Below are positions 3,138 through 26,235 of a DNA stretch of 32,000 nucleotides, piece by piece (the first letter of the stretch is position 1; each line of letters starts with the position of its first letter). Source of the DNA: Bellilinea caldifistulae (GTDB lineage: Bacteria > Chloroflexota > Anaerolineae > Anaerolineales > Anaerolineaceae); contig NZ_LGHJ01000017.1 in the NCBI RefSeq assembly GCF_001306055.1, forward strand, positions 1 through 32,000. The letters are read 5' to 3'. Both the position numbers and the translations under genes were made by a program. The notes beneath the pieces were generated by a model, which worked only from the letters and a program-made list of their open reading frames with translations, searched no databases and was not told the DNA's origin.

Positions 3138-4880
3138 TCAACTGGCGGAAAGTTTTTTCATCCGCTCCAAAATGCTGGCCAGTTTTTCGTTACCACCAGC
3201 CGGTGGCCGCCAATCTACCTGGATAACAGGGGTTTCCTGAGCGGTGAGATTTTCGGCAAACGATTCGAGCCCGACATTGAAGGCTTTGACCGGCTTTTTA
3301 AGTATTTCCAAATCCACCGGTGCAGCCGACGACTGCGCTTCATCCAGCGGCTGGTTGAGCGCCTGGATAATTTGACCGGCATAGCGTACGGCGGCTTCAT
3401 TGCTGGTTTCCACCCACGCTCCGCCCTGTTTCAACTGGCGGATTTGATGACTGAGTTTTTGCGGGTCTTCCTCCGTACCTGTGCAAACGACCACCACTTC
3501 CAGATAGCGCCCGGCTTTTTCGGCTTTGGCTTTGGCTTTGGCTTCGGCAATCGCCGGGCCAAGTTCGCTGGCCGGGTCGGGATGCGAACCGAAACCAATC
3601 ACCACATCCATCAAAATCACCGCCACCTCGGGGTCATTCGCCTCCTCCATCAAACGCCGAATACGCAGGTCGTTATCCATCATCGGGTGCAGGCGGCCGA
3701 CCGTGAACTCGTCTTCGCCCAGGTCTACAATGGTATGCTCAACGCTCACCAGCGAGTCTTTGAGTTTGTTCTCCTTGTTGATGGGCGCATTGGCATACAC
3801 TTTTGGCACATATTCGGTCAGCAGGTGCTGGGCCTCGTAAGCCAGTGTGCCGCCGGAAAACAGACCCCGCAGGTATTTTTGGCCGGGGGCAAATCGTTCC
3901 AGTTTCAGATCCGGTTCGACCTCCAGCACGGGCGGGCTTTTAGCAAGCTCAACTGCCAGCGCGGCTGCATCATCCAGCCCGGAGGCAAAAAACAAATTCC
4001 CCACCCGCCGCGAAATCGGGGTACGTCCAATAAAGTTGACCACTACCGGTTTACCGGCCTTACGCGCCACCCGCAGCACCTGATCAGCCACTTTGGGGGA
4101 AGGCGGCTTGGACACCAGCACAATCACTTTGGTATCCGGGTCACGGCTGAGAGCATCCAGCCCCATCAGGAAGGTCACGCCTCCCACTTTTTCGGAGAGA
4201 TCCCGCCCGCCCGTGCCAATTCCAAAGGTCATACCGCCACCCAGCTGGTCAATGCGGGAGGCTACCTGCTGTAAACCGGTGCCGGCGGCTGCGACCACAC
4301 CAATCGGCCCGCGCCGGACTTTGTTGGCGAAACCCAGACCGATGCCATTAATCATCGCAGTACCGCAGTCCGGACCCATGACGAGCAGACCCTTCTGAGC
4401 TGCCTCCGCTTTTAAAGAAATTTCCTCTTCAACGGGTACATTATCGCTGAAGAGGAAAACGTGCTTGTTGAGCCGTAATGCTTCGCGGGCGACACCGGCG
4501 GCATAACGGCCAGCCACCGAAATCAACACCCAGTTGGCATCCGGCATCATACTCTGGGCGCCTTCCAGACTGCGCGGCCGGTAATCCTGCTGGATGCTGG
4601 ACTTGCGCGCCGAGAGCAGCTCGTCCACTCGTTGGAGGGCATCACTGGCAGCCCGTTCATCGCCAGCTCGCACCACAATCACCAGATCATTTTCCTTGGC
4701 CTGTTCCACCTCGGTGGTTACCAGATTGACCCGAACGAGCAATTCTTTGTTCGTAGGGGTACCCATAATCACGCCGGCGTCTTCGACACCGGGCAAGTCC
4801 GCCAGTGACCGCTGCAGCTGCATCAAAACGGCTGAATCGTAGTAAACACCGCTGCGAATTTCGGCTTTAATCACGCTCAT
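3138..4880 (-). CDS. fdrA: FdrA family protein (acyl-CoA synthetase / succinyl-CoA-synthetase-alpha-like)
   Basis: 580 aa. Long collinear matches to E. coli FdrA as I recall it (SVAGRYAA...FSDNVPVEEEISLK...KGLLVMGPDCGTAMI; VIGFGSHPDPA; LAGGNEKLASILERM at the C-terminus). GGAG RBS before the ATG. Confidence 0.85.
   Translation of the reverse strand: MSVIKAEIRSGVYYDSAVLMQLQRSLADLPGVEDAGVIMGTPTNKELLVRVNLVTTEVEQAKENDLVIVVRAGDERAASDALQRVDELLSARKSSIQQDYRPRSLEGAQSMMPDANWVLISVAGRYAAGVAREALRLNKHVFLFSDNVPVEEEISLKAEAAQKGLLVMGPDCGTAMINGIGLGFANKVRRGPIGVVAAAGTGLQQVASRIDQLGGGMTFGIGTGGRDLSEKVGGVTFLMGLDALSRDPDTKVIVLVSKPPSPKVADQVLRVARKAGKPVVVNFIGRTPISRRVGNLFFASGLDDAAALAVELAKSPPVLEVEPDLKLERFAPGQKYLRGLFSGGTLAYEAQHLLTEYVPKVYANAPINKENKLKDSLVSVEHTIVDLGEDEFTVGRLHPMMDNDLRIRRLMEEANDPEVAVILMDVVIGFGSHPDPASELGPAIAEAKAKAKAEKAGRYLEVVVVCTGTEEDPQKLSHQIRQLKQGGAWVETSNEAAVRYAGQIIQALNQPLDEAQSSAAPVDLEILKKPVKAFNVGLESFAENLTAQETPVIQVDWRPPAGGNEKLASILERMKKLSAS
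3522..3545. repeat. Hexanucleotide microsatellite (GGCTTT)x3 + GGCTTC inside fdrA
   Basis: ggctttggctttggctttggcttc. On the minus strand it encodes the AKAKAKAE(K) linker of FdrA. It stays in frame. Confidence 0.9.
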
Positions 4881-15943: not shown

Positions 15944-17035
15944 ATGAAACTTCAACTTCCCCATGGTCATCTTGACTTTCCCGCCTTTCTGCCGGACGCA
16001 ACTCTGGCGGTAGTGCGTACAGTCGATTCGCGTGACCTGCGCGCCTGCGGTATTCCGGCTCTGATGATGAACGCCTTTCACCTCATGCAAAAGCCGGGTT
16101 CCAGCGTGATTCAGGCTTTGGGCGGCCTGCACCGGATGAGCAACTGGGATCGCCCAATCTTTACCGATTCGGGTGGTTTTCAGGCTTATTCGCTCATCCG
16201 TCAAAATCCGCGCTTCGGCAAAATGGACGAACGCGGAATCACCTTTCAGCCGGAAGGCGGCCAGCGTAAATTCCTGCTCACACCGGAAAAGAGCGTTCAA
16301 CTGCAAATCGGCTATGACAGCGATGTGGTCATCTGTCTGGATGATTGCACCCATGTGGAAGCGCCCCGCAGCGAGCAGGAACTCTCTGTGCAGCGCACCA
16401 TTGCCTGGGCCAAGCGCGCCCGGCGCGAATATGATCGTTTGATGGAACAAAAGAAACTGACCGGAGGTCAGAGACCGCTCATTTTTGCGGTCATTCAGGG
16501 CGGAGGCGAACTTGACCTGCGCCGTCAATGCGCCGATGCCCTGTTAGAAATTGGTTTTGATGGCTACGGCTTCGGCGGTTGGCCGTTGGACTCTTCCGGA
16601 AGTCTACTGAGCGAGATTCTCGAATATACCCGCCAGTTAGTCCCAGCCCAGTATCCCCTCCACGCCCTGGGAATTGGGCATCCGCACAACGTGGTAACCG
16701 GCTGGCAGCTGGGTTACAGCATTTTCGACTGCGCCATGCCAACCCGTGATGCCCGTCATGGCCGTTTGTACACCTTCACCAATCCTCCCGGACAGGATGG
16801 CGGATTGAACGGCAACTGGCTGGAATACCTCTACATCAACGACGAACGCCACATGCGATCCAGCCGCCCCATCTCCGAGTGGTGCGACTGTCCGACCTGC
16901 CAGCAATATAGCCTCGGCTACTTACGCCACCTGTTCAAGATCAACGACAGCCTCTTTTTAAGGCTGGCAACCATCCATAATTTGCGCTTTATGACCCAGC
17001 TGACCGAGCGCATCCGCCTGAATTCCCATGCCTGA
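15944..17035 (+). CDS. tRNA-guanine transglycosylase (TGT) family protein, divergent
   Basis: 363 aa. TDSGGFQ, IFDCAMPTRDARHG, Zn motif CDCPTCQQYSLGYLRH, IHNLRF. Substrate-pocket segments differ from E. coli Tgt as I recall it (FLPDAT vs FMPVGT; GFGGWPLDSSG vs AVGGLAVGE; LHALGIGHP vs YLMGVGKP). Confidence 0.8.
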   Translation: MKLQLPHGHLDFPAFLPDATLAVVRTVDSRDLRACGIPALMMNAFHLMQKPGSSVIQALGGLHRMSNWDRPIFTDSGGFQAYSLIRQNPRFGKMDERGITFQPEGGQRKFLLTPEKSVQLQIGYDSDVVICLDDCTHVEAPRSEQELSVQRTIAWAKRARREYDRLMEQKKLTGGQRPLIFAVIQGGGELDLRRQCADALLEIGFDGYGFGGWPLDSSGSLLSEILEYTRQLVPAQYPLHALGIGHPHNVVTGWQLGYSIFDCAMPTRDARHGRLYTFTNPPGQDGGLNGNWLEYLYINDERHMRSSRPISEWCDCPTCQQYSLGYLRHLFKINDSLFLRLATIHNLRFMTQLTERIRLNSHA

Positions 17036-17840
17036 GCCGGTGGACATTGATGCCCTGATTCGCGCCGTACAGGCCAACCCGCGCTACGCCGCCATAGACC
17101 CCGGCTTGATTCGCGGGTTAATTGAACGCTATCAGAGCAGCATTCACCAGCCGCGTGAATTGATTAAGGCTGTGCGCAATAAACTTCATCAGGTTGGCGG
17201 GGCTTATCTGGAAAAGCCAATAGACTATGCGAATTGGGGCGAACGCCTTGCAATCCTGCCCCGTGACCTGCATCATCCCCAGGTCAAAGAATTTTGCCGA
17301 CAAATGATGGCGCTGCACGCCTCCACCCGCGAACGCCTTCCAATCCTCGACCGGTTTTATGCGGAAACCCTCACCAGTCTTCAGCCCATTCATTCCATCC
17401 TCGATCTGGCTTGTGGGCTCAACCCGCTGGCTCTACCGTGGATGCCGGTCAACCCCGCTACCCAAATTTACGTTTGCGACATTTACAGCGACCAGATTAA
17501 CTTTTTACAGCAATTTTTCAACCATTTTGGCATCCATGGGCAGGCAACCCTTTGCGACCTGACCCGCAGTCTGCCTCAACAGTCGGTTCAGGTGGCTTTC
17601 CTGCTCAAATCCATCCCCTGTCTGGAGCAATTGGATAAGACCATCGCCACACGTTTGCTGCACGGCATTCCCGCAAAATACTGGCTGATTTCGTTTCCGG
17701 CTCACAGTCTGGGAGGGCGCGGCAAAGGGATGCGCCAGCACTACCGCCAGCACTTTGAGGAACTGATTCGCGGTTGGGCGGTACAATTGCGGTCTTTTGA
17801 ATTCCCCGGTGAACTGGTTTTCCTGCTTTCCCCTGCCTGA
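17028..17840 (+). CDS. FmrO/Rmt-family 16S rRNA (guanine1405-N7)-methyltransferase-like protein, copy 1
   Basis: 270 aa. HASTRERL, DLACGLNPLALPW and SFPAHSLGGRGKGM closely match recalled RmtB motifs (HASTKERL, DIACGLNPLAL, SFPTRSLGGRGKGM). 8-nt overlap (ATGCCTGA) with the TGT gene. Confidence 0.8.
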   Translation: MPEPVDIDALIRAVQANPRYAAIDPGLIRGLIERYQSSIHQPRELIKAVRNKLHQVGGAYLEKPIDYANWGERLAILPRDLHHPQVKEFCRQMMALHASTRERLPILDRFYAETLTSLQPIHSILDLACGLNPLALPWMPVNPATQIYVCDIYSDQINFLQQFFNHFGIHGQATLCDLTRSLPQQSVQVAFLLKSIPCLEQLDKTIATRLLHGIPAKYWLISFPAHSLGGRGKGMRQHYRQHFEELIRGWAVQLRSFEFPGELVFLLSPA

Positions 17841-17938
17841 TTCATCCTGCAGACCTAGCCGCAATCCATTTCGGGACGGATGGCACACCGAAAGGACTCG
17901 GCTATGATAGGGTCATCAAACCACAAGGAGAAACAATC

Positions 17939-18229
17939 ATGGAAAACCAAGTCGAAATCAGAAATACACTCAAGACCAATCCACTGGCAATTGCCAGCCT
18001 GGTTCTATCCGCCGGCGGTTTCAGCTTCCTCCCTCTGATCGGAAGTATCGCCGGCATTGTGACCGGGTACATGGCACGTCGCGAGATACGCGAGAATTCC
18101 CACCTCTACAACGGCGAGAGCCTTGCCAAAACGGCGATCATCCTCGGATGGATTGGGATTGTGCTGCCAATCGTGATCCTCACCTTTGGCATACTCTTCA
18201 TGTTTCCTGCGACGACGATCTTCCGCTAA
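17939..18229 (+). CDS. DUF4190-like small membrane protein, paralog 1
   Basis: 96 aa, two TM segments flanking a charged loop (GSIAGIVTGYMARREI...GESLAKTAIILGWIG). AAGGAG RBS. Confidence 0.65.
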   Translation: MENQVEIRNTLKTNPLAIASLVLSAGGFSFLPLIGSIAGIVTGYMARREIRENSHLYNGESLAKTAIILGWIGIVLPIVILTFGILFMFPATTIFR

Positions 18230-18246
18230 TGACGGGCTGACCTATG

Positions 18247-18324
18247 AACGGGAATGGGTTGAGGAAATTTCCTGTGTTTATCCCTCGTTGGAGATGACCA
18301 AAACCCATTCCTGGATCCCGTTTT
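18247..18324 (+). other. Long interrupted hairpin with T-run between the DUF4190 paralogs
   Basis: GGAATGGGTT (18251-18260) pairs with AACCCATTCC (18302-18311). The stem is extended by AACG/CGTT across a 7-nt bulge. A GGAAATTTCC palindrome sits in the apical part at 18263-18272, and TTTT follows. Confidence 0.25.
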
Positions 18325-18391
18325 CCCAAAAAGATAAAAAAACAAGGTTAAAATAAACTTGTCTGCACACTCATACGAAAGAAAAAATCTC

Positions 18392-18697
18392 ATGGAAAGA
18401 ACCCCGCAAATTGAACATGTTTCCTCTCATCCTCTCGCCATTGTTGGCCTGGTGCTTGGTATTCTTGGGCTGATCGGCGTGTTACCGTTGGTCGGCTCAA
18501 TTGGGGCATTGATCGCCGGCAAAATGGCTCAAAAGGAAATTCTGGAAAAACCAGAACTTTACACAGGTGAGAATTTTGCCCGCGCCGGCATCATCATGGG
18601 ATGGATAGGACTCGCCATTGGGGTTGTCATTTGTGTGCTGGTAGCGGTTGCTTTTCTGTTCTTCATGCCGGTTGGCATACAAACCATGCCTCAATAA
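18392..18697 (+). CDS. DUF4190-like small membrane protein, paralog 2
   Basis: About 50% identical by eye to paralog 1 (GSIGALIAGKMAQKEI...GENFARAGIIMGWIG). Start is ATG 18392, with TTG 18359 as an alternative. Confidence 0.65.
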   Translation: MERTPQIEHVSSHPLAIVGLVLGILGLIGVLPLVGSIGALIAGKMAQKEILEKPELYTGENFARAGIIMGWIGLAIGVVICVLVAVAFLFFMPVGIQTMPQ

Positions 18698-18703
18698 CCC
18701 ACG

Positions 18704-19804
18704 ATGAACCTGCACAGCCGCTGGCAACAATTTACGAATCGTTTTCTGAACCGTCTGCGCTGGCGGCTGACCCTGAGTTTCACGCTGGTCACCCTGGCGG
18801 CAATCTTAATGGCAGCCTGGTGGAGCTTCCTGGCGCTGAATGTATATCTTTCTCGCACCATGCCGGATCTGTTTACCGGCTCATCAGCCAGCCAGATGCT
18901 TCCCGGTCTCCTTCAACTGGCAGGACAGGCTCTGCTGGTGCTGATCATTCCGGCTGTGCTGGTAGGAACGTTGTTCGGTTTTTTAACCGCACGCTGGCTG
19001 GAAAGCCGGCTTGACCATTTGCGAAACACCACCGAGGCATGGGCAAACGGCAACTTCAAGCCCCGCATCAACGACCTTGCTCAGGATGAAATTGCCCGCT
19101 TCGGCAGGCAATTGAATCAAATGGCTGCGGAACTGGAAACCCTGATGTCAACCCGTCAGCAGTTAGCTGCCATGGAAGAACGGAATCAGCTCGCCCGCGA
19201 CCTGCACGATTCGGTTAAGCAAAATCTGACTGCGGCCATCTTGCAGCTGAACACCGCTGCAGTGCTGATCGCAACCGAACCTCAGGCTGCCCAACAGACC
19301 CTTCAAAGAGCCGAGGATCTTGCAGTGCAGGCTCAGCAGGAACTCACCAATGTGATATTAGAACTTCGTCCGGCGATGCTGCACCAAAAGAACCTGCCCG
19401 GTGCATTGAAAGATTACCTGCAACGATGGCAACAGCAAAATCAAATTGTCGTGGACTTCACTCACACCGAAAACCTCCAGCTGACATTCAGTCAGGAATT
19501 AACCCTTTTCCGAATAGTGCAGGAAGCCCTTGCCAATGTCATCCGCCACAGCAGTGCAACCCATGTCAACGTTTCTCTTGATTGCGACTCGCACCAGATC
19601 ATGTTGAGAATTCAGGACAATGGCCGCGGCTTTGACCTCAGCCGGTCAGGTTCTTCCGGCTTTGGTTTGAAAAGCATGCGCGACCGGGTGGAAGAAATTG
19701 GCGGTCGGCTGGAGATTGAAAGCAGCATCGGACAGGGAACAACGGTCAGCGCCTCCGTTCCGATCAAACTTGAACCGCGAAATGAGGAAATCCTCAATGG
19801 ATAA
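18704..19804 (+). CDS. Sensor histidine kinase, HisKA_3 (LiaS/DesK/NarX-type), two TM segments with a short loop, HAMP domain
   Basis: H-box LARDLHDSVKQNL, N-box EALANVIRHS, G-boxes IQDNGRGF and GFGLKSM. The loop between the two N-terminal TM segments is only about 20 aa. Confidence 0.85.
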   Translation: MNLHSRWQQFTNRFLNRLRWRLTLSFTLVTLAAILMAAWWSFLALNVYLSRTMPDLFTGSSASQMLPGLLQLAGQALLVLIIPAVLVGTLFGFLTARWLESRLDHLRNTTEAWANGNFKPRINDLAQDEIARFGRQLNQMAAELETLMSTRQQLAAMEERNQLARDLHDSVKQNLTAAILQLNTAAVLIATEPQAAQQTLQRAEDLAVQAQQELTNVILELRPAMLHQKNLPGALKDYLQRWQQQNQIVVDFTHTENLQLTFSQELTLFRIVQEALANVIRHSSATHVNVSLDCDSHQIMLRIQDNGRGFDLSRSGSSGFGLKSMRDRVEEIGGRLEIESSIGQGTTVSASVPIKLEPRNEEILNG

Positions 19805-20462
19805 AACGCCCAACCCAATTACGGTAATTATTGTGGATGACCACGCCGTTGTTCGGCAGGGTTTGATCGCTTTTCTACAAACACAGGAAGACATCGAAAT
19901 CATCGGTGAGGCTGAAAATGGGGCGCAGTTGCTTAAGTTACTCCCCCATAGCGTGCCGGATGTCCTGCTGATGGATCTGATCATGCCGGATATGGACGGG
20001 GTTGAGGCGACCCGCCGGGTAAAAGCCATCAGCCCTCATACGCAGGTCATCATTTTCACCTCTTATTACAAGGATGAACATATTTTTCCGGCTGTTCGGG
20101 CCGGAGCGCTCTCGTATATTTTGAAAGACACCAAACCCGCCGAACTGGTTGATGCCATTCGAAAAGCTTCGCGGGGTGAAGCCGTTCTTCATCCGCGTGT
20201 TGCAGCCCGGCTTGTGCAGGAAGTACAGGGCATACGCAGCGAAACCATCAACCCGTTTTCAGAATTGAGTGACCGTGAGTTGGAAATTCTGCGCCTGATC
20301 GCCAGCGGCATTTCCAATCGCGAGATTGCCGAAGTTCTGTTCATCAGCGAAAAAACAGTCAAGAGCCATGTGAGCAACATTCTCTCCAAACTGCACCTGG
20401 CCGACCGCACCCAGGCTGCCGTTTACGCCTGGAATCAAGGAATTGTCAGACGGGATGAATAA
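19797..20462 (+). CDS. Response regulator, NarL/FixJ family (REC + LuxR-type HTH)
   Basis: VIIVDDHAVVRQGL, LMDLIMPDMDG, LSDRELEILRLIASGISNREIAEVLFISEKTVKSHVSNIL. 8-nt overlap (ATGGATAA) with the kinase gene. Confidence 0.9.
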   Translation: MDKTPNPITVIIVDDHAVVRQGLIAFLQTQEDIEIIGEAENGAQLLKLLPHSVPDVLLMDLIMPDMDGVEATRRVKAISPHTQVIIFTSYYKDEHIFPAVRAGALSYILKDTKPAELVDAIRKASRGEAVLHPRVAARLVQEVQGIRSETINPFSELSDRELEILRLIASGISNREIAEVLFISEKTVKSHVSNILSKLHLADRTQAAVYAWNQGIVRRDE

Positions 20463-21282
20463 AACTGCTTCTGTTTCTGAAGATGAAATTCGCAAATGGA
20501 TTGGAATGCTGCGCGCCATTCGAAAGTATCGCTCGCTGGATTTACCCGATGCCCTCCTGCGCGATTTGATTGTGGAGGAGCTGTCCCGTCATTCCTCTTC
20601 CAGTGAGGCGTTGAAAGCCGTTCGCCGTAAACTCCACAACATCGTTGCCCCTTACCTTGGCGATCCAGACTACACCACCGCCCAAAAAGCCCTGGAGGCT
20701 GCTTTTACCGACGGAAGCCCACAATCTGTCCGAGAATTCTGCCTGTCCATGCTGGCCAGTCACGCCTCCACCCGTGAGCGGATTCCGCTCCTCGATGAGT
20801 TTTACTCCCGTTTGTGGAAAATCACCGGACTACCCCAGACACTCCTTGACCTGGCTTGTGGAATGCAACCGTTTGCCCTGCCGTGGATGGGCTTGCCCAC
20901 CTTGACCCGCTATTTCGCCTATGATCTGCACCGGCCGCGCGTTGATTTGATCAACCAGTTTTTTCAACGGAGCGGCTGCCGCGGTTCTGCCATTCACGAG
21001 GATATTTTGGTCAATCCTCCGCAGATAGAAGCCGAAGTTGCCCTGTTTTTCAAAGAAGCCCACCGTTTTGAACAACGCCGCCGCGGGGCCTGTTTGCCTT
21101 TCTTTCAAGCCCTGCGCGTTCGCTGGCTGCTGGTATCACTGCCAATCAGCAGCCTGAAAGGCACCCGTGATTTAGAAGATCGTCAACGCAGGTTGATGCA
21201 GTCCATCCTTGGCGGTCAAACCTGGGAGGTCACAGAAATCCGTTTTGAGAACGAGTTGGTGTTCTGTATTCAAAAAACATGA
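20455..21282 (+). CDS. FmrO/Rmt-family 16S rRNA methyltransferase-like protein, copy 2 (divergent)
   Basis: HASTRERIP and DLACGMQPFALPW are conserved, but the SLxGxxKGM segment is replaced by SLKGTRDLE. ATG 20455 overlaps the RR stop by 8 nt (ATGAATAA), with TTG 20443 as an alternative start. ATGA overlap with the next gene. Confidence 0.7.
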   Translation: MNKTASVSEDEIRKWIGMLRAIRKYRSLDLPDALLRDLIVEELSRHSSSSEALKAVRRKLHNIVAPYLGDPDYTTAQKALEAAFTDGSPQSVREFCLSMLASHASTRERIPLLDEFYSRLWKITGLPQTLLDLACGMQPFALPWMGLPTLTRYFAYDLHRPRVDLINQFFQRSGCRGSAIHEDILVNPPQIEAEVALFFKEAHRFEQRRRGACLPFFQALRVRWLLVSLPISSLKGTRDLEDRQRRLMQSILGGQTWEVTEIRFENELVFCIQKT

Positions 21283-22772
21283 GCCGTCGTAAAAAAACTT
21301 CCTCAACCGCTCCCTACCCTGCCATTTCAGCACGAGAGACGGCGCTGGAACAATTCCGCGCCTTGCTTGCGCCGGAGGATTTTCAAGCCCTGCTCGAAGA
21401 GCTGGAGCGCCCGCTGTTGCCCGCCTTTCGGATCAACCCACTCAAAACTTCGCCGCAAGCCGTTGCAGACTGGTGCAACTGGTACGGTTGGGAGGTCCAG
21501 CCGGTAGTGTTTTGCCCAACCGGCTGGCAGGTTCGCCAGGCGCGTACACCGCTCAGCCAGACCCTGGAACACCGGTTGGGGCACTACTACATTCAGGATG
21601 CGGCTTCGATGCTTCCGGCAGAATTATTCGACCTGCCAGCGTCTCCCTACCCGCTGATTCTTGACCTGGCCGCTTCGCCCGGGGGAAAGACCACCCACCT
21701 GATCAGCCGCACCCTTGACCGCGGGTTGGTACTGGCCAACGATGCCGGACTCGAACGGATCACCCCACTGCGTTTGGTGCTGCAAAATTGGGGGACGGTC
21801 AATACCGCTGTCACCCGCTTTCCAGCCGAAAAGTTTGGGCGCTGGTTTCCGGCCACCTTCGATTGGGTGTTGCTGGATGCACCGTGCAGCATGCAATCCC
21901 TCCGACCGACCGAATCGCATCCGATGCGGAGCATCTCTCAGCGCGAGCAATCCCATCTGGCACGCCGCCAAACGGCAATGCTCCTCTCCGCCCTGGCAGC
22001 GGTCAAACCCGGCGGTCAGGTGGTCTACTCGACCTGTACCCTCGCTCCGCAAGAAGACGAAGCCGTTCTGGATGAGATTATCCGCCGCCTGCCGTTCAGT
22101 GTTCAAATCAACCCGGTCACCGACCGGCTCCCCGCCCCTGCCCCAGCACTCGCCAATGCGTTTGGTCAAGTCTTCCATCCGCAGGTACAAAACGCCCTGC
22201 GCCTCTGGCCACATCGCTTTTCGACATCCGGTTTTTTTGCGGCCCGCTTAACCCGCACTGGTGAAGTTGAATTACCCATCGAACCGCCACCTGCCCGCCC
22301 CCTGCGCGAAACCGGTCAGGAGCCGCTCAACCGCTCAAACCTGCAAGAGATCACCCACTGGCTACAAAATACCTACGCTTTTGACCTGCTCAGCGTACTG
22401 GAAACCTATCGCTTAGAACTGTGGCACAGCCAGACCTCCGTTTTTGCCGTTCCCATTGCTTTTCTGGAAAGATTCAACGAACTGCCGTGTCAAATGCTGG
22501 GTCTCAAGGTATTGGAAGAAACCCCCGATGGCTGGCAGCCCGCCCATGAATGGGTCAATCGTTTTTTCAATCTCTTTCACGCCGGACGATTAGTCCTACC
22601 GAATGAAATGATGGACGAATGGCTGAAAGGCAAGGATGTTCCCCTGCCGGTTTCCGCCGCTAATCCTCCCGCCGTCTGGTTGGTGTTTGATGAACGCAAC
22701 CGCTTTGTGGGGAGGGGACGCTCCAGTGGTCCCTGGTTGAAAAACCTGCTGCCGCGTCGCCTGATTGGGTAA
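21279..22772 (+). CDS. rsmF: 16S rRNA (cytosine1407-C5)-methyltransferase RsmF-like (NOL1/NOP2/Sun family with C-terminal extension)
   Basis: 497 aa. The architecture is collinear with E. coli RsmF as recalled (EDFQALLEELERPLLPAFRINPLK; YYIQDAASMLP; DLAASPGGKTTH; LLDAPCS; VYSTCTLAPQEDE; C-terminal LKNLLPRRLIG vs LKNSYPRELV). No NusB-like N-domain, so not RsmB-type. Confidence 0.75.
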   Translation: MSRRKKTSSTAPYPAISARETALEQFRALLAPEDFQALLEELERPLLPAFRINPLKTSPQAVADWCNWYGWEVQPVVFCPTGWQVRQARTPLSQTLEHRLGHYYIQDAASMLPAELFDLPASPYPLILDLAASPGGKTTHLISRTLDRGLVLANDAGLERITPLRLVLQNWGTVNTAVTRFPAEKFGRWFPATFDWVLLDAPCSMQSLRPTESHPMRSISQREQSHLARRQTAMLLSALAAVKPGGQVVYSTCTLAPQEDEAVLDEIIRRLPFSVQINPVTDRLPAPAPALANAFGQVFHPQVQNALRLWPHRFSTSGFFAARLTRTGEVELPIEPPPARPLRETGQEPLNRSNLQEITHWLQNTYAFDLLSVLETYRLELWHSQTSVFAVPIAFLERFNELPCQMLGLKVLEETPDGWQPAHEWVNRFFNLFHAGRLVLPNEMMDEWLKGKDVPLPVSAANPPAVWLVFDERNRFVGRGRSSGPWLKNLLPRRLIG

Positions 22773-22780
22773 GAGACGCT

Positions 22781-23755
22781 TCAATCAGAAAGGCTAATTT
22801 CAGCGGTGCGAATGTTCAGCCGGTAGCGCAAACCGAATTGATCCTGAATCAACAGGGTTTCGCCCTCATCCCAGGAAACTGGCAGGTATTGACCCTGCCG
22901 ATTTTCGACAATATAACGCACCACACCGCTGATCAGGTCAACCAGCACAAATGAGGTTTGCATCTCCGCTGGTTGTTGAATATTGCCCAAAATGCCAAAA
23001 GCCAGCCGGCTGTTATCGGGCGCCCAGACCAACCCGCCGGCCTGCCAGTTATCTCCTTGATCCAGCTGCAGTAAGTTTGTGAAGGCAATTTCGCGGAGAA
23101 CCTCCCCCGACAAACTGTGAATGACCAGACGGCCACCCTGCAAAACAGCAAAGGTTTCAACGTCCCCCGCCGCCCGCAACAAACCGCATTCACCGGTTAG
23201 TTGGGTTCTTTCACCGTTTTGCAAATTGACGCGATAAAGACCGCAATCAAATCCGACGATGGTCGGGCTACCATCCGGTATACCATGCTCGGTGTAAAAA
23301 AATTGACTTCCATCTTGGCTCCAGTGGAATTGAGCCGGTAAGGTATAACCCAGCCCAAAGGGGCGTTCTTCATCGAGGATCGGCCAGCGCAACCCGCCAT
23401 CCTTGCGGAACACCGACAGCGAAAGCCGGTAAGTTTCGCCGCTTACCCTGCCATCGGCTGCAACTGGAAAGATGGTGCTGACCTGTACCGTCCATTGACC
23501 ATCCGGCGAGGGGTAAAACCAGTCCTCATGGGTTGTTTTTGGCGGGGCAGGAGACGAAGTCGGGGTTGACCGAATAGCTTCGGTGGATGGGGGCGCCAAA
23601 GTTTCTACCTGGCGAAGTTCAACCGCCGGCGTCGGCGATACCAGTGGAGGTTGAATGACCGCAGTTGGTAGAGACGGCGCAGCCGTTGAACAGGCTGCTA
23701 TTCCGATGCACGCCCCTATCCAGACCAGATTACGCAGCCATTTGGTCATCATCAT
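22781..23755 (-). CDS. Lipoprotein of unknown function, PD40/beta-propeller-like repeats
   Basis: Signal peptide plus lipobox (GIAAC). WSQDGSQFFY and WAPDNSRLAF are repeat-like strings. The start overlaps the rsmE stop (ATGATGATGA). Confidence 0.6.
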   Translation of the reverse strand: MMMTKWLRNLVWIGACIGIAACSTAAPSLPTAVIQPPLVSPTPAVELRQVETLAPPSTEAIRSTPTSSPAPPKTTHEDWFYPSPDGQWTVQVSTIFPVAADGRVSGETYRLSLSVFRKDGGLRWPILDEERPFGLGYTLPAQFHWSQDGSQFFYTEHGIPDGSPTIVGFDCGLYRVNLQNGERTQLTGECGLLRAAGDVETFAVLQGGRLVIHSLSGEVLREIAFTNLLQLDQGDNWQAGGLVWAPDNSRLAFGILGNIQQPAEMQTSFVLVDLISGVVRYIVENRQGQYLPVSWDEGETLLIQDQFGLRYRLNIRTAEISLSD

Positions 23756-24507
23756 CTCCTTTTCGCATAATCCTGTTCTTCAAAAAGGGCCAGCAGTAAA
23801 GCAGCCCCGACAATCGCAGCCGTTTCGGTGCGCAAGATGCGTTTCCCTAAACTCACCGGCAGCCAGCCGGCCTGTTCGGCTGCTTGAACTTCCTCGGCTT
23901 CCCAGCCGCCTTCAGGCCCGATCAGCAAGCCGGCGTGGGCAGCGCTATCCGCTGGTAAAACAGCCGCCGCGCCGATCATCCGTTGGGTTTCACCCTCCCA
24001 CGCCATCAATCCAATCTCAAAGTTTTGCCTGAACGGAAGAAAATCCGGCAGCCATCGCGGTTCATCCAGGCGCGGGATCATTCCCCGTCCGGCTTGTTCG
24101 GCCGCCTCCTGCAAAATTCGTTGCCAGCGGGGATACTTTTCCAGGGCCAATGCAGGATGCTGCACCAGACTGCGCCGGGTGATCAGCGGCACAATCCTGC
24201 TCACCCCCACTTCGGTCACTTTTTGGAGCGTCCACTCAAATTTTTCCCGCTGGGTCAAAGCCAAACCGAGCGTCAGGTGTAAAGCAGGTTCTCGTTCGTT
24301 TTTCTGCCAGCCCAACAAAACCCCGCTTGCTTCTCGTACCGAGAGAGCGGTTAATTCGACTACCGCTTCGTTACCCGAACCATCCAGTGCCATCACCCTG
24401 CAGCCGGGGGTAAGTCGCAAGACTTGCGCCATCTGACGGGCGCACTCCGGTGGAAATTGAACCCGATTCCCCTCAAATGCTGTCGGCGGGATAAAGAAAC
24501 GGTGCAT
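23752..24507 (-). CDS. rsmE: 16S rRNA (uracil1498-N3)-methyltransferase
   Basis: MHRFFIP start typical of RsmE, about 250 aa, C-terminal LLIGPEGGW...E...LG.RILRTETA SPOUT motif. The TTG start at 24549 directly abuts GGAGG and was rejected. Confidence 0.85.
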   Translation of the reverse strand: MHRFFIPPTAFEGNRVQFPPECARQMAQVLRLTPGCRVMALDGSGNEAVVELTALSVREASGVLLGWQKNEREPALHLTLGLALTQREKFEWTLQKVTEVGVSRIVPLITRRSLVQHPALALEKYPRWQRILQEAAEQAGRGMIPRLDEPRWLPDFLPFRQNFEIGLMAWEGETQRMIGAAAVLPADSAAHAGLLIGPEGGWEAEEVQAAEQAGWLPVSLGKRILRTETAAIVGAALLLALFEEQDYAKRR

Positions 24508-25521: not shown

Positions 25522-26235
25522 ATGGAAAAATGGGTCAAAGACCTGAAAACACTGGTGGGGATCCAACTGACCGCCCGGCAAATTGCCGCCTTTCAGCGTT
25601 ATGAGGATGAACTGCTGGAATGGAACAGCCGCATGAATCTGACCGCCATCCGCGATCGCGAGGGGATACGCACCAAACATTTCCTTGACTCGCTCAGTTG
25701 TATTCTTGCTTTTCGCGAACGCCCCCCCGAACGTCTGATTGACATCGGCACCGGAGCCGGATTTCCGGGTATTCCCCTCAAAATCATTTACCCGCGCATG
25801 AAACTTACGCTGGTTGAATCGGTTGGCAAGAAGCTGGAATTTTGCCGTCATATCGTTCAAACGCTCAAGCTGGAGGATGTAACCCTGCTCCAGGCCCGTG
25901 CTGAAGCGCTCGGCCAGGATCGCGCCTACCGCGAGCAGTATGACTGGGCAGTTGCCCGGGCGGTTGCCACCCTGCCCGTTTTAGCCGAATATCTACTACC
26001 GCTGGTTGCGCTGGGCGGAAAAATGCTGGCACAAAAAGGAGAAAGTGCCCATACCGAAGCGGTTGCCGCGGAAAAAGCCATCCGCGTACTGGGAGGTGAG
26101 CTCCAGCAAATCATTCCCGTTCTGGTACCGGGCATTGCCGAAGAACGTTATTTGGTCGTGGTGGATAAAGTCGCTATTACTCCGCCCGGTTATCCAAGGC
26201 GGGTTGGCTTACCTGCTCGCCGTCCAATTCAGTAA
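25522..26235 (+). CDS. rsmG: 16S rRNA (guanine527-N7)-methyltransferase
   Basis: NSRMNLTAIRD, KHFLDSL, DIGTGAGFPGIPLKI, 237 aa. Confidence 0.9.
   Translation: MEKWVKDLKTLVGIQLTARQIAAFQRYEDELLEWNSRMNLTAIRDREGIRTKHFLDSLSCILAFRERPPERLIDIGTGAGFPGIPLKIIYPRMKLTLVESVGKKLEFCRHIVQTLKLEDVTLLQARAEALGQDRAYREQYDWAVARAVATLPVLAEYLLPLVALGGKMLAQKGESAHTEAVAAEKAIRVLGGELQQIIPVLVPGIAEERYLVVVDKVAITPPGYPRRVGLPARRPIQ

Follow-up and report, generated by a model that had tools for sequence, protein, structure and literature searches.

Enzymes of the tRNA-guanine transglycosylase (TGT) family are known to exchange bases in tRNA, and more recent work has added DNA. The present analysis concerns a chain of eight genes at positions 15944-22772 of a 32,000-nucleotide stretch of Bellilinea caldifistulae DNA (the window), which begins with a gene for a TGT-like protein and continues with genes for two FmrO-type methyltransferases, a two-component signalling cassette and an RsmF-like methyltransferase. 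In canonical Tgt the Leu231/Ala232 peptide contacts guanine through its NH and preQ1 through its C=O, with Glu235 supporting either state (PMC3660597). Substrate specificity goes along with the GGLAVG pocket motif (PMC11570991); the supplementary tables of that study contain no Chloroflexi rows. For the FmrO-type enzymes, the roles of individual Sgm residues in S-adenosylmethionine (SAM) and guanine binding have been described (PMC2896518), as has the loop that distorts helix 44, which spans residues 237-246 of RmtC, with Arg241 and Met245, and reads SLGQRSKGM in Sgm (PMC10054953). Against this background, the strongest signal at the locus is the obligate pairing, and sometimes fusion, of a TGT subfamily with FmrO and RsmI, which was overlooked by the original prediction, an earlier note on this DNA. 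Taken as a whole, the chain is probably a composite of an obligate TGT-like/Rmt1 operon for the decoding site and an inserted, self-contained signalling cassette of the envelope type.

The window was derived from scaffold DF967971.1 of B. caldifistulae GOMI-1 (GCA_001050215.2), in which the proteins of the chain are GAP11561-GAP11568. All eight coding sequences are on the + strand, and their coordinates agreed with independent gene calls for the same assembly:

15944..17035, + strand, TGT-like base-exchange enzyme of the 'P-D-A-T / GGWPLD' subfamily, 363 aa (PF01702, 1.2e-93)
17028..17840, + strand, Rmt1-type FmrO methyltransferase, Sgm/Rmt-like, 270 aa (PF07091, 1.8e-41; Sgm 3LCU, E=1e-36)
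17939..18229, + strand, DUF4190 membrane protein a with two transmembrane (TM) segments, 96 aa (PF13828, 5e-19; two hydrophobic segments; 42% identical to b)
18392..18697, + strand, DUF4190 two-TM membrane protein b, 101 aa (PF13828, 2.9e-14)
18704..19804, + strand, histidine kinase, intramembrane-sensing, LiaS/NarX-like, 366 aa (HAMP, HisKA_3, HATPase_c)
19797..20462, + strand, NarL/LuxR-type response regulator, 221 aa (Response_reg and GerE; NarL 178 bits, under the cutoff of 250)
20455..21282, + strand, Rmt2-type FmrO methyltransferase, a divergent paralog, 275 aa (PF07091, 3.2e-40)
21279..22772, + strand, RsmF-like 16S rRNA m5C methyltransferase, 497 aa (RsmF_N, RsmB/F and a weak PUA)

The original prediction had described eight co-directional genes in a tight chain with overlaps of the coupling type, and direct reading of the sequence bore out both the strand and each junction. 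The first gene (tgt-like) and rmt1 share an 8-nt overlap, ATGCCTGA (17028-17035). Gaps of +98 nt, +162 nt and +6 nt separate rmt1 from DUF4190a, DUF4190a from DUF4190b (start at 18392) and DUF4190b from the kinase gene, respectively. Overlaps join the kinase and regulator genes (ATGGATAA, 19797-19804), the regulator gene and rmt2 (ATGAATAA, 20455-20462), and rmt2 and rsmF (ATGA, 21279-21282). The arrangement exceeds chance, since the tight junctions were kept across species, and the chance juxtaposition of the genes was considered and rejected for that reason. The proposed families (TGT, two FmrO, two DUF4190, a HisKA_3 kinase, a GerE regulator and RsmF) were confirmed by Pfam and NCBIfam, with every specific NCBIfam model scoring under its curated cutoff except Tgt, which passed marginally. 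A terminator scan found no intrinsic terminator-like site at any junction of the chain, the terminator and promoter scans being at chance level overall. Rfam and tRNA scans of the window gave no matches, and PADLOC assigned neither the TGT-like protein nor its neighbours to a defence system.

The genomic partners of the TGT-like gene were determined from a metagenome scan seeded with distant members of the subfamily, which gave 80 loci that were sorted by pocket type. FmrO was adjacent to the TGT-like gene in all 24 evaluable loci with a GG[WY]PL pocket, and RsmI in 9 of these 24; the corresponding values for canonical Tgt loci from the same scan were 0/16 evaluable loci for FmrO and 0/16 for RsmI, and those for loci with other Asp45-type pockets were 3/20 and 1/20. 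The canonical loci had the arrangements QueA-Tgt-QueH, QueA-Tgt or Tgt-YajC-SecDF (QueA in 8/22, YajC in 6/22), whereas no adjacent queA, queH/G or yajC-secDF was found in approximately 130 TGT-like loci. The TP_methylase neighbours scored 208-222 bits, above the RsmI equivalog cutoff (TIGR00096, 167.9), and the FmrO protein adjoining the TGT-like gene was nearly always of the Rmt1 type. Adjacency survived reshuffling, the orders RsmI-TGT-FmrO, FmrO-RsmI-TGT and FmrO-TGT all being seen. In Chloroflexus aggregans the TGT-like gene overlaps FmrO between unrelated flanks, in a Ktedonobacterales metagenome-assembled genome (MAG) RsmI, TGT-like and FmrO genes all overlap, and a MAG labelled Acidobacteria carries TGT-like, FmrO, RsmI and FmrO in that order. 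Comparison of gene neighbourhoods thus shows the core operon of tgt-like and methylase genes for three classes of Chloroflexota; a single MAG labelled Acidobacteria has it as well.

In several proteins the partners are fused. TGT-like::FmrO fusions were found in proteins of 628 aa (P0249/P0391), 667 aa (P0392/P0370/P0393), 709 aa (P0395) and 636 aa (P0396), and one protein of 710 aa (P0253) is an RsmI::TGT-like fusion. The FmrO fusions form three deep lineages that are 36-50% identical, and in two fusion loci RsmI lies 5' of the fusion gene. Since the domains are joined by low-complexity or disordered linkers of an estimated ~40-110 residues, the FmrO fusions are not frameshift artefacts at the gene overlap. 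As judged from adjacency and fusion, the TGT-like protein is selectively linked to enzymes with characterised relatives that all target the assembled 30S subunit, at C1402, G1405, C1407 and U1498. A literature search on TGT with FmrO or 16S methyltransferases, and on Chloroflexi with queuosine, found nothing beyond a figure legend on Chloroflexi FmrO homologs; the TGT-like/FmrO/RsmI association appears to be undescribed, and its comparative support across genomes is robust.

Residues of the TGT-like protein were numbered by alignment to Z. mobilis Tgt, and 74 orthologs were compared. Asp156, Asp280, Gln203 and the zinc site (Cys318/Cys320/Cys323/His349) were invariant in 74/74 orthologs and Asp102 was kept in 73/74. 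The base-binding pocket had been rebuilt: all 74 orthologs carried the substitutions V45D, G46A, L231W, A232P, V233L, G234D, Y258H, M260L, K264H and N290H, and the guanine/preQ1 switch GGL[AS]VGE was replaced by GGWPLD[S/G/K/A], with proline at 232 and with Glu235 lost (position variable). These changes confirmed that the enzyme is a divergent TGT, as had been claimed. Because a proline at 232 has no NH, the canonical guanine-binding state is predicted to be unable to form; the pocket also gains two acidic residues, Asp45 and Asp234. The protein retains its catalytic equipment and is devoid of the canonical base-recognition switch.

HMMER was run exhaustively against 1.84 billion cluster representatives, and the best 150 of the 50%-identity representatives were examined. 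Among the top ~65 of these 150, most full-length matches bore the D-A-T/GGWP signature; in this search from the TGT-like protein, canonical Tgt first appeared at 273 bits and 38% identity, as a separate, lower-scoring group. By this measure the TGT-like proteins form a large separate subfamily, and their automatic annotation as 'Tgt' may be wrong. A single metagenome protein in ENA (P0381, 581 aa) combines a TGT-like domain with a C-terminal RVT_3 (RNase H-like) domain. Other Asp45-type TGT subgroups, with GGRHxD or GARPxD pockets, were seen at metagenome loci L113, L123, L133, L135 and L143. Their genes follow that for a ~650-aa DUF11-repeat protein in a conserved arrangement, in L135 with pyruvate kinase and enolase next; these GGRHxD/GARPxD loci had no FmrO neighbour, and the neighbours were housekeeping genes that gave no functional clue.

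Rmt1 and Rmt2 both have an FmrO domain over their full length and are 32% identical to each other. The Sgm residues R108, D131, G135, D156, D182, K199 and P229, and an aromatic residue at 64, were kept in the consensus of 78 Rmt1-type and of 70 Rmt2-type orthologs; the two proteins are thus Rmt/FmrO-like, as originally claimed, in that both paralogs retain the cofactor- and guanine-binding residues of Sgm. The K-G-M loop (SLgGr.KGM) was kept in the 78 Rmt1-type orthologs and was not conserved in those of the Rmt2 type. Rmt2 keeps the SAM site, the K199 equivalent and the His/Tyr of the N-domain, with a different motif IV, FFKEAHRFEQ. By alignment, Rmt1, which is closest to Sgm, retains all of the residues that are required, as far as is known, to bind SAM and guanine and to distort helix 44. 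The duplication of FmrO is old, since the Rmt2-type paralog also occurs outside the Anaerolineaceae.

The conservation of the chain was determined in 80 species-level genome loci, fetched with an alignment of FmrO homologs, onto which 16 proteins of the window were mapped. All 80 were Anaerolineaceae-like (Bellilinea, Longilinea, Anaerolinea, Brevefilum and MAGs); the junction counts take in three redundant copies of the source locus (L001-L003). A tightly packed core was kept, consisting of tgt-like, rmt1, rmt2 and rsmF with rsmE convergent just 3' of it. The tgt-like and rmt1 genes overlapped in 67/74 loci, the rmt1-rmt2 spacing was ≤30 nt in 52/73 and the rmt2-rsmF spacing was ≤30 nt in 51/60. 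In approximately 60 of the 80 genomes rmt1 was followed directly by rmt2, rsmF lay directly 3' of rmt2 in ~59 orthologous loci, and RsmE lay 3' of rsmF in 51. The domains of the RsmF-like protein (PF17125, 1.1e-12; PF01189, 1.8e-32; PF13636, weak at 1.4e-3) have the architecture of RsmF.

The genes 3' of the chain include the following:

22781..23755, - strand, 324-aa protein without a family match (no Pfam hit), between rsmF and rsmE
23752..24507, - strand, RsmE, 16S m3U1498 methyltransferase family, convergent neighbour (PF04452 in the gene calls)
25522-26235, + strand, RsmG/GidB, m7G527 family, which with RsmE lies within 3.5 kb 3' of the chain

The 324-aa protein, which has a lipoprotein-like N-terminus (..GIAACSTAA..), is confined to the Bellilinea group, with orthologs in just eight other loci. 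Its gene is a second lineage-specific insertion in the cluster, because outside that group rsmF and rsmE converge at a distance of ≤30 nt. With RsmE and RsmG included, the number of predicted 16S rRNA methyltransferase genes in ~10 kb comes to five. The helix-44 decoding-site theme that had been proposed was upheld and extended, since the conserved convergent gene next to the chain encodes RsmE (U1498), and the cluster of other lineages also includes RsmI (C1402). On balance, we think it likely that the core is an ancient operon for modification of the 30S decoding site, at the top of helix 44, and that the sensor block was inserted later.

The signalling cassette was found in far fewer loci. 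Its kinase has TM segments at residues ~20-49 and ~64-99 separated by a loop of ~14 aa, which makes it an intramembrane-sensing protein of the LiaS-like type; LiaS is its top NCBIfam model, with 140 bits where the cutoff is 450. The kinase and regulator genes overlapped in 9/9 loci. The spacing between the regulator gene and rmt2 was ≤0 in 10/10 table rows, of which one (L040) was a spurious weak response-regulator hit, leaving nine real cassette loci; in every one of these the regulator stop overlaps the rmt2 start by 8 nt. The full block of two DUF4190 genes, kinase and regulator was present only in L005-L008, L011 and L014, plus L015, where the locus is cut off. A single DUF4190 gene occupied the rmt1|rmt2 junction in L013, L017 and L019, and all loci with a cassette or a single DUF4190 gene at this junction were Bellilinea-like. 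Other cargo was found at the same place: a 6.7-kb insert with a major facilitator superfamily (MFS) transporter, a TetR regulator and ClpB in the MAG chromosome OY969938.1 (L010:10796-17559), and a PIG-V-like glycosyltransferase in L044. Cargo seems to have landed at this junction repeatedly. In addition, three kinase homologs (~45% identical) each belonged to a DUF4190-kinase-regulator trio in unrelated neighbourhoods; in all of these contexts a DUF4190 gene was immediately 5' of the kinase gene, and no FmrO or RsmF gene was near it.

Two sequence features lie in the gaps of the cassette:

17880..17908, + strand, promoter-like site ATGGCA-17-TATGAT, from a promoter scan of the 98-nt gap (scan overall at chance level)
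18249..18313, + strand, stable hairpin in the 162-nt gap, with an outer stem of 12 bp and GUUUU 3' of it; a possible partial terminator or attenuator

In seven cassette-bearing species the 98-nt gap kept a -10 element (TATGAT/TAAGAT), a Shine-Dalgarno sequence (AAGGAG) and an upstream AATCC..GACGGATG element. The 105-nt region around the hairpin (18226-18330) folded with a minimum free energy of -35.7 kcal/mol (z = -2.76). The hairpin arms were kept in L005-L007; by eye, L008 appears to have a different self-complementary sequence at this place. A conserved TAAAAT -10-like element was seen 3' of the hairpin and 5' of DUF4190b, which, together with the hairpin, suggests that the first small membrane protein is differentially expressed.

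The two-component system is best described as an autonomous cassette with its own promoter-like site that was inserted into an older operon in the Bellilinea group. This comparative assignment to a derived insertion was made because the cassette is absent from ~60/80 genomes, stands alone elsewhere and is replaced by other cargo at the junction. Since the regulator gene overlaps rmt2 in every real cassette locus, rmt2-rsmF probably became the distal genes of the cassette transcript. The cassette would add, at most, a second, signal-dependent input to rmt2-rsmF, and the two-component coupling is a local and recent feature. The original prediction, borne out in part, had made the signal pair an integral part of the module. 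That claim found no support in this form, given the distribution of the block, confined to the Bellilinea subgroup with rmt1 abutting rmt2 in ~60/80 loci, the homologous stand-alone modules and the alternative occupants of the junction (MFS/TetR/ClpB, glycosyltransferase, lone DUF4190). It had also proposed a comparison of gene neighbourhoods, in which tgt-like and FmrO did co-occur widely and the combination of two-component system, FmrO and rsmF was limited to that subgroup. Inducible aminoglycoside tolerance, which it had suggested, found no specific support, because rmt1, with its complete set of G1405-type residues, lies upstream of the cassette.

The following mechanism is consistent with these results. 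The tgt-like and rmt1 products would be made together from an upstream promoter, and those of rmt2 and rsmF by read-through; in B. caldifistulae the latter pair would also be distal on the cassette transcript and so receive a signal-dependent input. Rmt1 would make m7G1405 on assembled 30S subunits. Because the pocket has Pro232, lacks Glu235 and has gained two acidic residues, the TGT-like enzyme may handle a guanine that is blocked or cationic at position 7, which could be the m7G of its partner as the leaving base or a preQ1-like base as the incoming one. It would act on the rRNA site of its FmrO partner and not on tRNA, and from the gene associations we infer a joint action of the two on helix 44 of 16S rRNA. 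A more specific proposal, which we put forward tentatively and regard as possible, is that the TGT-like protein is the first rRNA transglycosylase, which docks on the 30S subunit with FmrO, or is fused to it, and swaps a guanine at the top of helix 44, in the simplest case G1405. By one route, N7-methylation by Rmt1 would prime the base as a good leaving group; by the other, a 7-deazaguanine (preQ1-like) base would be inserted and then methylated by the FmrO paralogs.

The main rival to a role in the ribosome is that the locus is a housekeeping cluster, in which the TGT-like protein is the tRNA-guanine(34) transglycosylase of the lineage, perhaps with another queuosine precursor, and in which it lies beside the 16S methylase genes only because modifiers of the translation apparatus are co-expressed, with no substrate in common. 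Several observations agree with this account and weigh against joint action on helix 44. The TGT-like protein passed the Tgt model TIGR00430, if marginally (315.6 bits, cutoff 306.75), and Tgt is its RefSeq name. Its catalytic and zinc residues are intact, the Arg286/Arg289 pair of tRNA-type Tgt was kept in 74/74 orthologs, the aromatic dimer-interface residues were also kept, and it is encoded by the most conserved gene of the block (median 68% identity). The neighbouring RsmI and RsmE resemble housekeeping copies. One metagenome contig (Ga0080006_1257477, L114:2809-3990) has a divergent QueA-like open reading frame (ORF), 26-34% identical to canonical QueA and with an in-frame TAG at 3457-3459, 2 kb 5' of a GGWPLDS TGT-like and FmrO pair. 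This was the only one of ~130 TGT-like loci with any que-type gene nearby, and the ORF may reflect a pseudogene or a sequencing error, or may hint at a coexisting queuosine pathway. With Z. mobilis Tgt as the tblastn query, none of the fetched 20-kb loci contained a second TGT; if the TGT-like protein is the sole Tgt in these genomes, a tRNA role becomes more likely. The partner enzymes also fell short of their specific models, with Rmt1 at 205.0 and Rmt2 at 157.7 bits against a cutoff of 250 bits for NF000466, and the RsmF-like protein at 246.7 bits against 588 for PRK11933/NF008898, which was still its best model, ahead of the RsmB and tRNA m5C models. An AlphaFold2 model of fusion P0396 gave no usable inter-domain signal (predicted template modelling score 0.54, with a poor FmrO half and a mixed alignment). 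Co-transcription and every substrate are inferred, and to our knowledge neither 7-deazaguanine nor base exchange has ever been reported in rRNA. In contrast, evidence against a tRNA role comes from the replacement, in every member, of the GGL[AS]VGE pocket element of all queuosine-forming Tgt (Leu231/Ala232 NH, Glu235), from an FmrO adjacency that is specific to the subfamily (24/24 vs 0/16) and survives changes of order and flanks across classes, and from repeated fusions to two different 30S-acting methylases; the queA/yajC context that canonical tgt showed in the same scan was not seen at any of the ~130 loci. We therefore consider the tRNA account somewhat doubtful.

The two remaining explanations concern the wider module. 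If the two-component system had evolved to control G1405/C1407 modification, for example for inducible aminoglycoside tolerance, the overlap of the regulator stop with the rmt2 start in all real cassette loci, the lack of a terminator-like site between these two genes and the promoter-like site kept 5' of the cassette would all be expected. An unrelated lineage also has a NarL-type pair between the partners: in L176:497-8158 FmrO and TGT-like genes are 5.5 kb apart, with an M48 peptidase, a GAF-HisKA_3 kinase and a GerE regulator between them. This may be a coincidence, because HisKA_3/GerE pairs are very common in Chloroflexota. Such an integrated module is unlikely, however, given that ~60/80 related genomes have rmt1 abutting rmt2 and no cassette, that homologous DUF4190-kinase-regulator modules stand alone elsewhere, that unrelated cargo sits at the junction in other lineages, and that a complete G1405-type paralog, rmt1, lies 5' of the cassette. 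It has also been established that FmrO/Sgm-type enzymes are classically self-resistance genes of antibiotic producers (PMC2896518), and TGT-family and 7-deazaguanine enzymes occur in secondary metabolism (PMC5699537), so that FmrO might protect the producer of an aminoglycoside-like or 7-deazapurine compound, with the TGT-like enzyme being biosynthetic. Producer self-resistance was rejected as highly improbable: no biosynthetic genes were found in the flanks of the window or of ~130 related loci, where the neighbours are ProRS, thioredoxin, RsmE, RsmG, RsmI and RecF-like genes, inheritance is vertical and family-wide, and there was no PADLOC/Dpd match.

If the ribosomal proposal is correct, the decoding centre of ribosomes in Chloroflexota, and possibly Acidobacteriota, would contain a non-canonical, possibly 7-deaza, base, with intrinsic insensitivity to 4,6-disubstituted deoxystreptamine aminoglycosides as a by-product. 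Likewise, if Rmt1 makes m7G1405 constitutively, aminoglycoside resistance would be intrinsic and not induced. The ties of a large TGT subfamily to 30S decoding-site enzymes, by operon, coupling and fusion, make an rRNA role testable in the cultivable B. caldifistulae and C. aggregans. They are also relevant to where the G1405 methyltransferases behind present-day pan-aminoglycoside resistance in pathogens came from and what they natively do, as in these phyla such enzymes look like housekeeping partners of another enzyme and not like stand-alone resistance genes. The insertion itself is an example of the way in which the distal half of a housekeeping operon can be taken over by an autonomous sensor cassette.

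Compared with the Tgt enzymes of Z. mobilis and E. coli (EC 2.4.2.29), the TGT-like protein has the same PF01702 fold family, ~38% identity to Z. mobilis Tgt, the nucleophile Asp280, Asp102, Asp156, Gln203, the CxCxxC..H zinc site and Arg286/Arg289. It differs in having GGWPLD in place of GGL[AS]VGE, where Glu235 is missing and Pro232 leaves no peptide NH to contact guanine N7, in the gain of Asp45 and Asp234, in the changes of Met260 to Leu, Lys264 to His and Tyr258 to His, in a shorter N-terminus and a 14-residue insertion after Arg289, and in its genomic partners, which are FmrO/RsmI and not queA/yajC/secDF. DpdA and phage DpdA are 7-deazaguanine DNA transglycosylases and DpdM is a preQ1 methyltransferase (PMC10516641, PMC10164549). 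As in these systems, a TGT-family base exchanger is found alongside methyltransferases, and, as proposed for the TGT-like protein, the target of DpdA is a nucleic acid other than tRNA position 34. The TGT-like protein, however, had no PADLOC/Dpd hit and is much closer to bacterial Tgt, its partners are 30S-specific methylases, and no dpd or restriction genes were found in the flanks of its locus.

The signalling cassette resembles LiaFSR, a three-component envelope-stress system, in its HisKA_3 kinase, whose two TM helices are separated by a very short loop, its NarL/LuxR regulator and the small membrane-protein gene directly 5'. In contrast to LiaFSR, the accessory protein is DUF4190 and not LiaF, and the scores are far under the equivalog cutoffs. 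Rmt1-type proteins share with the Arm/Rmt/Sgm G1405-N7 methyltransferases the SAM, guanine and helix-44-distorting residues defined in Sgm and RmtC, and Chloroflexi homologs already appear as 'uncharacterized homologs' in a published FmrO family tree (bioRxiv 10.1101/712810). Unlike the Arm/Rmt/Sgm enzymes, the FmrO genes described here are chromosomal and vertically inherited, occur in non-producers, have NF000466 scores under the cutoff, always come with a TGT-like partner, to which they are sometimes fused, and are accompanied by a second, Rmt2-type paralog without the K-G-M loop. ArmA and NpmA are reported to block endogenous methylation of the decoding centre and to affect host fitness (PMC3923132). 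Interference in E. coli between RsmF (C1407) and the writers of m7G1405 concerns these two enzyme families, which act on neighbouring nucleotides; here, in contrast, FmrO and RsmF are co-encoded and translationally coupled in one operon, which implies that their action would be coordinated rather than conflicting.

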